64,000 nucleotides of DNA from NCBI RefSeq assembly GCF_029227855.1, contig NZ_CP074357.1; one strand, written 5' to 3'. Positions 27,175 through 29,249 of the stretch are shown here, one piece after another (the stretch's first letter is position 1; every line of letters starts with the position of its first letter). The notes under the pieces were generated by a model. The model was not told where the DNA came from, did no database searches, and worked only from the letters and a program-made list of their open reading frames with translations. This DNA is from Escherichia coli (GTDB taxonomy: Bacteria; Pseudomonadota; Gammaproteobacteria; Enterobacterales; Enterobacteriaceae). The translations under genes and the position numbers were made by a program.

Positions 27175-27267
27175 TCGCCTTCGACGCCTGCGCAAAGCGT
27201 AGCGCGAGGGTGGCGGGCTCACGACCAAACGCCCAGAGGTCGATCATCGCAGGGATGTTTGGCTTTG

Positions 27268-27295
27268 TGGTGCGGACGACGGGACTCGAACCCGT
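27268..27295 (-). other. tRNA 3'-end-like fragment (T-arm + acceptor + CCA), possible att-site remnant
   Basis: Minus strand reads ACGGGTTCGAGTCCCGTCGTCCGCACCA; no matching 5' half found. Confidence 0.3.
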
Positions 27296-28127
27296 ACTCT
27301 CACAGAGAAGCAGATTTTCGTACCACCTCGACTTTCGCCGCCGTCTGATGACGTTCGTGGTCTGGACTGTCCCTTCGCCATTGCCCGAAGGCTTTAGGCG
27401 CCGCCCGTCCAGTCTCTACACCTTCCCCCGAAGGGGCTTGGCTCGGGATTGGCTTAGGGTATTGCCCGTTAGCGTTCCCCGACTTTGAGCGGTTCTACTC
27501 CGCGGATTTCCCCGCGGGCACTCCAATTTTAAAGTCTGCTGCGTCTACCGATTTCGCCACGTCCGCCTTTTTTCGCCGTTCCTAGCGCTCGTGCGATGCA
27601 CCTATGTTGCACCTAGCGCCGAATCGTTCTTCGTCATCCTGAAAAACCACGTCTCCTAAAGCCTTGCATAGCTTATCTTTTCTCCACCACGAACTTTTTT
27701 GTGGGATGGTAGAAAAAAAGACTTTTTAAGTCCGCTGGCTTGCCAGGCCTTGTTAGCTTGTACGGTCATGGTTATCGGGTAAAGAATATTGACGGCATCG
27801 CTGGTGTCGGTGGCTGAAAAGCCGGCTCCCATCAGGGCAATAGCCATTTCAGATGCAGGCGTACAGGGCAATGGTCAACAGCTACAGCCTGTCTGACGAT
27901 TCCGGCGTCATGGCTGCGGCGGCTATCACGCATTTTTTGTTCGGTCAGGCGGTGTTTTCGTACCTCAATGGTTGGAGCGTGTTGATCGGACCTGGTACAG
28001 GTTTGGACAGCACGGGCTGCAAATACGCAAGGGATTTAATGGGCCTGGTGGCGTTCACGGCTTTTATCGTGACGTTTCTGTTCAGGGGCTACTCATAATC
28101 TCGTGGCTCGGCGGTTCCCGGCACACC

Positions 28128-29249
28128 ATGACAGTAAGGAAGGACCCTGTGTCTCAACTCTCCCAGCTTCGAAGCCCCGCCGCCGTGCAGGCTGCCATCG
28201 ATGAGTTCGTGCAACTGGGCCGCACGAAATTCCTGGCGCGCCACGGCTACGGCAAGTCCCGCGACTTCCTGGTACGTGATCCGAAGACCGGCACCGATTG
28301 CGATTCCAAGGCCATCGCCGGTGTGGCCTTCGGCAAGCAATTTCCCGAGCAGGGCCCGCTCACTGCTGACAGCTTCTCCGGTGGCGAGGCGACCGTCGTT
28401 CCGGCGCTGACGCGGCTCGGGTTTCGCATCATTCGCATCGGCGAAGACTGGTCCGAAGAAGAGGTCCTGGCCACGGTCGAAGACTATTTCGACATGCTGC
28501 GTGCCGAGGCGGCTGGGGAGCCGTACAACAAGTCCGAGCACAACCAGGCACTGCGCCAACTGCTGAACGGTCGCAGCAAGTCTTCAGTCGAGCTCAAGCA
28601 CCAGAACATTAGCGCCGTACTCGATGCCCTGGGCCTGCCCTATATCAACGGCTACAAGCCACGCGGCAACAGCCAACTGCTGCTGCGTAAATCCGTACAC
28701 GCCTACGTTCTGGAACATCAGCAGACGGTCGGCGCTCTTGTCGATGCCCTGGAGGAGGTAAAACTTCCGGGTGACAAAACCTACCGAGCGGCTTTGGTAG
28801 AACCACCCGCCCGTGAAGTGCTTGTGCGTACCCCGGCATCTCTACGGCAACGCCTACCGCGAAAGTTCGATTATGCCGCTCGCGATGAAGCCAACCGCAA
28901 GCTGGGCCGGGCAGGGGAGCAGTGGGTGATTGGCTACGAACAGCAACGCCTGACCGAGCTCGGCCACCCAGAGCTTTTTCAGCGGCTGGATTGGGTGTCC
29001 GACACCCAGGGAGACGGTGCGGGGTTCGACATCCTGTCGTTCGAAGAGGACGCCCATGAGCGCTTCATCGAGGTGAAAACCACCAATGGCGGGGTAGGCT
29101 CGTCTTTCTTGGTCAGCCACAACGAACTCGAATTCTCCAAGGAGGCGGGCGATCAATTCCATCTGTATCGCGTGTTCCAGTTTCGGGACGGTCCGCGCCT
29201 GTTCACGCTACCCGGCGACCTCAGCCAACATGTGCATCTCAAGCCGACG
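28128..29249 (+). CDS. hypothetical protein with DUF3883-like nuclease-fold C-terminal region, 3' end replaced by IS26
   Basis: ORF 27972..29276 (start uncertain; ATG at 28128 chosen); ..HERFIEVKTTNGGVGSSFLVSHNELEFSK.. motif; last 9 codons derive from the IS26 IR. Confidence 0.5.

Follow-up and report, generated by a model that had tools for sequence, protein, structure and literature searches.

Positions 27175-29249 of the 64,000-nucleotide (nt) stretch of Escherichia coli DNA analysed here (the window; contig NZ_CP074357.1 of RefSeq assembly GCF_029227855.1) lie between the aminoglycoside-resistance gene aac(3)-IId with its neighbour tmrB and a copy of the insertion sequence IS26. On the minus strand, this segment holds a tRNA-Leu(UAA) gene that is intact and contains a 213-nt group I intron of subgroup IC3 (27268-27566); its upstream spacer (27567-27732), a 391-bp piece (27739-28129) and, on the plus strand, an IS26-truncated DUF3883 gene (28149-29249) follow. 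Matches to the segment are found in 1,350 PLSDB plasmids and in 673 of the 5,426 complete E. coli genomes. We consider it very probable that, taken together, these features represent an intact intron-split tRNA-Leu gene of alphaproteobacterial origin, carried within a mosaic unit to which the DUF3883 gene was contributed by a separate source. A self-splicing-type ribozyme and a foreign tRNA gene would then reside, without annotation, in a gentamicin-resistance module that is among the commonest.

Anatomy and integrity of the intron-split tRNA-Leu(UAA) gene

An earlier note on this DNA had read a 28-nt stretch next to tmrB as the T-arm, acceptor strand and CCA of a tRNA without a 5′ half, as left behind at the attachment (att) sites of integrative elements. 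The stretch itself is real: ACGGGTTCGAGTCCCGTCGTCCGCACCA occupies 27268-27295 on the minus strand, and the plus strand at 27267-27294 reads TGGTGCGGACGACGGGACTCGAACCCGT, the reverse complement of the T-arm, acceptor strand, A73 and CCA. However, the supposedly absent 5′ half is present on the same strand, as GCGGACGTGGCGAAATCGGTAGACGCAGCAGACTT at 27566-27532, with 213 nt between it and the 3′ half downstream. It comprises the acceptor 5′ strand, the D-arm and the anticodon stem, and terminates in C32 U33 U34, and the acceptor strands of the 5′ half (GCGGACG) and of the 3′ fragment (CGTCCGC) are fully complementary. The Rfam family RF00028 (Intron_gpI) matches the intervening 213 nt end to end (36.8 bits, E = 1.9e-7).

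The gene spans 299 nt, encoded CCA included. Exon 1 (27532-27566) ends with the 5′ strand of the anticodon stem and C32 U33 U34; the intron (27319-27531) has the omega-G at 27319 as its last base; and exon 2 (27268-27318) contributes A35-A38, the 3′ strand of the anticodon stem, a long variable arm, the T-arm, the acceptor 3′ strand, A73 and CCA, thereby including the 28-nt fragment. The insertion point lies in the anticodon loop between U34 and A35, and removal of the intron restores a canonical tRNA: when 27566-27532 and 27318-27268 are joined in silico, ARAGORN recognizes an 86-nt tRNA-Leu(UAA) with a cloverleaf, a long variable arm, the anticodon UAA, the discriminator A73 and an encoded CCA. 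At the predicted junction of the ligated exons, GCAGACUU is joined to AAAAUCUGC, and a junction-spanning read would take the form GCAGACTT followed by AAAATCTGC. The arrangement CUU/intron...G/AAAA corresponds to the classical tRNA-Leu(UAA) site Leu.3Ug, subgroup IC3 (Williams 2020, bioRxiv 10.1101/2020.01.27.920355).

Standard pipelines miss this gene. At its default settings, ARAGORN calls no tRNA and no tmRNA in the whole window, and the gene therefore looks like a fragment; with introns allowed, it detects the gene, places the splice site wrongly and labels the product tRNA-Stop. In the PGAP annotation of an identical plasmid copy the RNA gene is absent, and only two small hypothetical open reading frames (ORFs) appear here, one at 27656-27847 (minus strand), reaching into the spacer of the tRNA gene, and the other at 27871-28098 (plus strand). 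Both are probably not genes, but annotation artefacts propagated through thousands of records. An 81-amino-acid (aa) ORF in the region 27739-28129 has no Pfam or PADLOC match and no homologue family beyond copies of the unit.

Since tRNA 3′ ends commonly serve as att scars, and the default ARAGORN run calls no tRNA, the 28 nt could be taken for an orphan 3′ end, the scar of an integrative element. We regard this as highly improbable. The 5′ half and the group I intron stand directly upstream on the same strand and complete a canonical tRNA-Leu, the 299-nt gene is conserved with covariation in more than 100 chromosomes, and the unit contains neither a second copy of the 3′ end nor an integrase nearby. 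The 28-nt end is not an isolated partial tRNA but part of exon 2 of a complete gene; the idea of an attachment-site remnant survives only for six other nucleotides, GGACTT at 27733-27738, which derive from a displaced orphan 5′ half (see below). Less probable still is a tmRNA or another tRNA-like element as the source of the tRNA-like end. Rfam does report a weak tmRNA match (12.2 bits, E = 0.018), but this is confined to the T-arm and spans 17 nt, ARAGORN calls no tmRNA, and the locus encodes a full cloverleaf with the anticodon UAA and a long variable arm.

The identity of the intron is corroborated by its predicted fold, for which a P1-P9 model was built by hand on the standard group I topology. 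In this model, P1 contains the U-1:G wobble, P2 and P9b are capped by GAAA loops, P5 and P8 bear receptor motifs of the CCUAAG type, the pseudoknot is made up of P3 and P7, and the 3′ end reads ...UACG with the omega-G. All 82 model pairs are canonical in the window sequence, and an unconstrained minimum free energy (MFE) fold recovers P1, P2, P4, P5, P6a, P8, P9a and P9b. The intron model and the cloverleaf were then scored on an alignment (A1) of the window with 44 chromosomal homologues. Across these 45 sequences, standard pairs occupy 98.5% of the cells, as opposed to 34-45% when the partners are slid by 1-3 columns, and two-sided (covarying) changes occur at 34 pairs (183 cells), with none of 500 shuffles matching any observed measure. 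All 45 sequences have the U:G at the splice site (U35:G44 of the gene), P4 and P7 are invariant, P2, P5a, P6a, P8a and P9a covary, and the cloverleaf helices are all 99-100% paired, likewise with covariation. Moreover, of the 232 columns conserved to at least 90% there is not one at which the plasmid copy departs from the consensus, compared with a median of 2.5 deviations for the chromosomal genes, which argues for an intact gene and not a relic.

Given this conserved anatomy and the way in which the tRNA introns of Anabaena and Azoarcus are known to behave, the plasmid intron is predicted to self-splice in a guanosine-dependent manner. In the primary transcript, the end of exon 1 (ACUU) and the first intron base would pair with the internal guide GGAGU, creating the U-1:G wobble, and an external guanosine held in P7 would attack the 5′ splice site. 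The omega-G (27319) would next occupy the P7 pocket, and the freed 3′-OH of exon 1 would join exon 2 to give the 86-nt tRNA with its encoded CCA. Enterobacterial hosts may then make use of the plasmid tRNA-Leu; if expressed, it would supply plasmid-bearing enterobacteria with an extra decoder of UUA and UUG.

The intron is of a type already known, and the plasmid-borne copy is a further member of it. With the cyanobacterial and plastid tRNA-Leu(UAA) intron (Anabaena type; Leu.3Ug, IC3) it shares the host gene, the insertion point CUU/AAAA, the U-1:G wobble, the omega-G, the small size, the lack of an ORF and an IC3-type core (GAGCCAAG...GAAGGUGUAGAGACU.GACGG). Unlike the Anabaena type, it belongs to an alphaproteobacterial lineage and is found on enterobacterial resistance plasmids, outside any chromosome; its periphery also differs in the three-way P9 with a GAAA loop and in the receptor-like motifs of P5 and P8. 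The Azoarcus tRNA-Ile(CAU) intron (about 205 nt, IC3) presumably has a near-identical core strand (GAAGGUGUAGAGACU.GACGG...AGUCCAG). It presumably also resembles the window intron in the GAAA tetraloops of L2 and L9, the CCUAAG-type receptors, size and G+C content, and presumably differs from it in residing in another tRNA and at another position of the anticodon loop.

Relatives of the tRNA gene and of its resistance-gene neighbours

We scanned genome collections for loci in which the IC3 core strand AAGGTGYAGAGACTNGACGG comes 92-122 nt after the end of exon 1. At least 120 chromosomal loci with an intron at the same site were found, mostly in Alphaproteobacteria, with some in Eremiobacterota and a few in beta- and gammaproteobacteria; in 29 of these, the exon 1 sequence is identical to that of the window. 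Among the matches listed, the nearest whole-gene relatives are Phyllobacterium salinisoli (95.6%) and Enterovirga aerilata (95.3%), followed by a Roseovarius metagenome-assembled genome (MAG; 94.6%), a Hyphomicrobiales MAG (94.0%) and Mesorhizobium sp. (93.7%). By sequence identity, the nearest of these relatives of the tRNA gene and its spacer of about 170 nt are thus alphaproteobacterial, and the closest belong to Hyphomicrobiales. One of the loci (L063) has a second intron-bearing tRNA-Leu gene in inverted orientation, downstream on the opposite strand.

The neighbouring cargo occupies 25725-27174 on the plus strand and consists of aac(3)-IId (25759-26619) and tmrB (26632-27174), as named by PGAP, with Pfam matches to Antibiotic_NAT (E = 1.7e-62) and AAA_33. 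Outside plasmids, the nearest relatives of TmrB are alphaproteobacterial. Three chromosome-like metagenomic contigs carry the aac(3)-tmrB pair (L009 and L010, each at 9127-10564; L011, at 6920-8357) with 86% DNA identity to window positions 25725-27172, the encoded proteins being 87.8% (AAC(3)) and 88% (TmrB) identical to those of the plasmids. The neighbourhood of the pair is syntenic with, and 86% identical to, that of Sinorhizobium meliloti, which carries tmrB alone there, and these contigs provide a lead to the origin of aac(3)-II. A scan of the three Sinorhizobium-like loci at Rfam gathering thresholds found no tRNA or intron beside tmrB, and these relatives therefore do not show the plasmid arrangement. 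The aac(3)-IIe context of pVet9 (L145) is 96.2% identical over 25733-27221 and divergent beyond; therefore, within the 93-nt link that separates tmrB from the 3′ end of the tRNA (27175-27267), positions 27175-27221 are the native flank of tmrB. The homologues of the tRNA gene end at 27268, and the 46 nt in between (27222-27267) are left without assignment.

We infer that the tRNA gene reached the plasmids as chromosomal DNA of a soil-type alphaproteobacterium, together with aac(3)-IId-tmrB. The simplest reading, albeit unproven, is that the three genes were neighbours in one Hyphomicrobiales genome. A slow-clock, housekeeping-type gene beside aac(3)-II and tmrB constitutes a provenance marker, and combined with the Sinorhizobium-like aac(3)-tmrB pair it renders the origin of aac(3)-II testable in Hyphomicrobiales. 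Published descriptions of the module exist, and among those found none mentions a tRNA or a group I intron. In a literature search in which gene names with parentheses were not searchable, we found no paper naming the origin of aac(3)-II and none connecting the IS26/aacC2-tmrB module with any tRNA gene or group I intron.

Several observations weigh against parts of this account. As to the contiguity of the tRNA gene with aac(3)-tmrB, the 46-nt link matches the relatives of neither flank. The earlier note had proposed a search of genomes for the source tRNA locus; this does bring up chromosomal relatives, but among the matches listed, from genomes and metagenome contigs alike, none is more than 96% identical and none has tmrB beside the tRNA. 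A metagenome scan for a full orphan half with a window-type spacer (described below) gave six contigs, the best only 90% identical and none with tmrB nearby. As to the intron, its RF00028 score lies below the gathering score of 50, and it is not a member of the family at that threshold; the seed of RF00028 contains no bacterial sequences, and the working cutoff for group I introns has been set at 18-20 bits (Williams 2020). The MFE z-score is unremarkable (-1.25), and therefore it is the comparative evidence that carries weight. As to function, neither a sigma-70 consensus promoter nor an intrinsic terminator was found around the tRNA gene, which leaves expression in enterobacteria unproven, and the plasmid copies are all essentially identical and hence uninformative on selection on the plasmid.

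The lack of a consensus promoter would also suit a decaying, non-functional relic, as would the position between resistance cargo and IS elements and the absence of an obvious benefit to enterobacterial hosts. In addition, the transfer was probably too recent for decay, so that a gene could be silent without having decayed. Nevertheless, we consider a relic unlikely: besides the unchanged conserved positions and the canonical state of all model pairs, the omega-G, the U:G wobble and the G-binding helix P7 are intact.

Orphan tRNA-Leu 5′ halves upstream of intron-bearing genes

The spacer upstream of the tRNA gene (27567-27732, minus strand) travels with the intron-bearing gene and contains conserved blocks, among them the direct repeat CTAGGTGCAnnATAGGTGCA, the tandem motif CTAGGTGCAnnATAGGTGCAG, which is strongly conserved and lies some 45 nt upstream of the tRNA, and the likewise conserved leader AGAATCGGCGGCAAAAG. 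The repeat region is presumed to be a promoter or a protein-binding region, and its repeats are candidate promoter elements or sites for a recombinase or regulator. Homologous spacers (60-90%) lie upstream of the gene at L032, L039, L084, L113 and L146-L151, and the flanks beyond them differ. At L015, the spacer is unrelated and has its own triple repeat, TATCACAC.

In about 15 of the 126 loci listed, the intron-bearing gene is preceded on its own strand, at a distance of 0.2-1.4 kb, by another tRNA-Leu 5′ half (L015, L028, L035, L039, L047, L073, L083, L084, L113 and L146-L151). These orphan 5′ halves always stop right after the anticodon-loop CTTAAAA, and their sequences vary between loci in a lineage-specific manner. 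At L084, L113 and L146-L151, the start of the spacer is preceded by a full orphan half, in which ...GGACTT is followed directly by AAAAAGTC, and the homology to the window begins there. The window retains the spacer and, of the orphan, no more than the final 6 nt, GGACTT at 27733-27738 (minus strand), and its alphaproteobacterial DNA therefore ends inside this structure.

The locus L015 indicates which of the two partners is the newcomer. Its orphan is identical at 33 of 35 positions to an intact, intron-less tRNA-Leu(UAA) in the same contig (3936-4022, about 6.6 kb away), and the acceptor stem of its intron-bearing gene is unlike that of the orphan. These features mark the orphan as native and the whole intron-bearing gene, exon 2 included, as foreign. 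A search reaching up to 13.5 kb downstream of the orphan-bearing loci found no displaced native 3′ half, and the genes following the tRNA there are ordinary-looking host genes with no integrase among them. It thus appears that the incoming intron-bearing gene, with its spacer, took the place of the 3′ half in a resident tRNA-Leu gene without an intron. We considered one conservative crossover within the anticodon loop and rejected it, since the new exon 1, and not the orphan, is the pairing partner of exon 2.

The spacer of about 170 nt between orphan and gene, CTAGGTGCAnnATAGGTGCA included, is conserved in Enterovirga, two Mesorhizobium, the Roseovarius MAG and six metagenome contigs. Within this clade, the homology ends exactly at the CCA of the tRNA and all flanks differ. 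Across two orders, the tRNA and intron of its members are 90-96% identical to the window, closer than to others of the same order, and this identity suggests horizontal spread of the tRNA gene, intron and spacer.

Two of the orphan-bearing loci also encode a recombinase. At L073, an intact gene for a divergent tyrosine recombinase of about 390 aa lies in the 1.4 kb or so between the orphan and the intron-bearing gene, and L083 has a frameshifted recombinase gene at the equivalent place; the recombinase matches Phage_int_SAM_5 above the cutoff and Phage_integrase below it (E = 2.5e-4). As a matter of speculation, the replacement could proceed via a recombinase that attacks the tRNA gene at two sites, or via break-induced copying for which the native 5′ half serves as primer. 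We tentatively raise, as a possibility that we do not favour, that 27268-27738 is a mobile replacement unit, composed of a spacer with protein-binding-like repeats and a complete tRNA-Leu(UAA), which would invade, destroy and substitute intron-less tRNA-Leu(UAA) genes. Under this doubtful scheme, a tyrosine recombinase, intact at L073, frameshifted at L083 and lost from the form of about 465 bp, would drive the process, and the intron, by splitting the DNA target, would confer self-immunity and be retained as a DNA-level immunity device. If true, a ribozyme-protected tRNA cassette would now be present on clinical plasmids.

The architecture recalls genomic islands that enter tRNA genes by means of tyrosine integrases with anticodon-loop sublocation, in that a tRNA-Leu is likewise broken in the anticodon loop and, at two loci, a recombinase gene lies at the break. 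It differs from such islands in that the 5′ half is displaced instead of the 3′ half, and in that the incoming DNA supplies a complete replacement gene, along with an intron and an upstream region of its own. Aragorn 'ghost exons' beside intron-split tRNA genes have been regarded as false calls (Williams 2020), and may be the orphan halves seen here. Taken together, the orphan-5′-half architecture suggests that intron-bearing tRNA genes take the place of resident genes as they spread, which could explain both the patchy distribution of tRNA-gene group I introns and these ghost exons.

The DUF3883 gene and the mosaic IS26-bounded unit

The earlier note had likened an ORF with a FIEVKTTNGG segment to DUF3883-type proteins, which it associated with defence contexts, and had seen the C-terminus of the ORF replaced by IS26; all of this holds. 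The ORF starts at ATG 28128 or, according to PGAP, at GTG 28149, and runs to 29249 on the plus strand, with IS26 beginning at 29250. It matches PF13020 (NOV_C, equivalent to DUF3883) with E = 1.2e-21 (77 bits against a gathering score of 22.1; profile positions 1-90 of 91) and the PADLOC profile PDC-S36 with E = 1.4e-103 (positions 4-273 of 280, and 4-279 of 280 for an intact homologue), and a PD-(D/E)XK motif, D...EVK, is visible in ...GFDILSFEEDAHERFIEVKTT.... Homologues combine PF26345 (ScoMcrA_N) with PF13020, and a full-length one (P0004, 89% identical) gives a weak N-terminal type-IV-restriction signal (mREase_IV); a PDB sequence search with the protein returned no matches. NOV_C is the PD-(D/E)XK catalytic domain of the modification-dependent enzyme YenY4I (PMC6765204) and of the anti-phage protein HmaA (PMC11232893). 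With PDC-S36, YenY4I-type and HmaA nucleases, the window protein has in common the NOV_C domain with D...EVK, a reader-like N-terminus and, in its native hosts, a defence-island setting; unlike them, it is a single 378-aa type without PUA/DUF3427 or helicase fusion, in a copy short of 11 C-terminal residues. PDC-S36 ranks only as a candidate defence system, and we accordingly refer to the product as a candidate phage-defence nuclease with a type-IV-restriction-like N-terminus.

IS26 removed merely the last 11 of the 378 codons, leaving 367. Other copies of the unit hold the intact gene, 100% identical up to that point and followed by a gene for a 456-aa DDE transposase (DUF772/DDE_Tnp_1). The same order, collinear at about 90% identity, is found in a Stutzerimonas kunmingensis MAG. 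The transposase genes of the plasmid and MAG loci lie at L136 7530-8900 and L006 11234-12604, the element starting 23-41 nt past the DUF3883 stop codon in each. The full-length relatives measure 378 aa, and the best chromosomal ones (88-89% protein identity) belong to Stutzerimonas and Pseudomonas, where the gene always lies directly 3′ of a DpdF/GajB-like helicase gene of about 1,720 aa, in integrase-bearing defence islands. The helicase is a DEAD/UvrD double-helicase of 1,714-1,729 aa with strong PADLOC matches to DpdF and GajB (L002 4763-9907; L006-L008 4810-9999); it may form a two-gene defence module with the DUF3883 protein, of which the plasmids would possess the nuclease alone.

The DNA identity to the Stutzerimonas-type islands is 81-84% and starts only at 28130/28150. 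Between this point and the end of the alphaproteobacterial DNA lie 391 bp (27739-28129) with no relatives beyond copies of the unit; a plasmid search for distant matches to this piece gave identical copies only. On these relationships, 27175-29249 is a mosaic, alphaproteobacterial up to 27738, without outside relatives for 391 bp and of Pseudomonas type thereafter, in which the homologies show the DUF3883 gene to be of Pseudomonas/Stutzerimonas type and of a separate source from the tRNA block.

This bears on the suggestion of the earlier note that the segment is a sliver of a chromosomal island carried along with aac(3)-II. Foreign chromosomal DNA did travel along with the resistance gene, yet it is a mosaic of sources and not one island. 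A single contiguous island piece from the aac(3)-II donor, holding both the tRNA and the defence gene, would fit the constant co-occurrence of the parts in more than 1,000 plasmids and their broadly alike G+C content (0.54-0.61), and the actual source genome was not located. We nonetheless consider it improbable, since the relatives of the tRNA block are alphaproteobacterial, those of the DUF3883 gene are Stutzerimonas and Pseudomonas genes behind a helicase that is absent here, and the alphaproteobacterial homology breaks off abruptly within an orphan tRNA half, at 27733-27738. The unit is therefore best read as assembled from at least two phylogenetic sources and one further piece, with the tRNA and its ribozyme as a hitchhiker.

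The unit is bounded on the left by an IS26 at 24674-25494 and on the right by its partner at 29250-30069 (plus strand), which truncates the DUF3883 gene. Between the left IS26 and the aac(3)-IId cargo lies a 229-bp fragment (25496-25724), at which the alphaproteobacterial DNA has its left boundary. We take it to resemble an IS10/ISVsa5 end, and in pE2855-3 PGAP annotates partial ISVsa5 copies beside it. P0008 proved to be a copy of this IS26-bounded unit with an assembly deletion. To the right of the second IS26, an ORF resembling the class 1 integron integrase gene intI1 (29908-30867, minus strand) runs into IS26 and is followed by an aadA-like adenylyltransferase ORF (30797-31807, plus strand).

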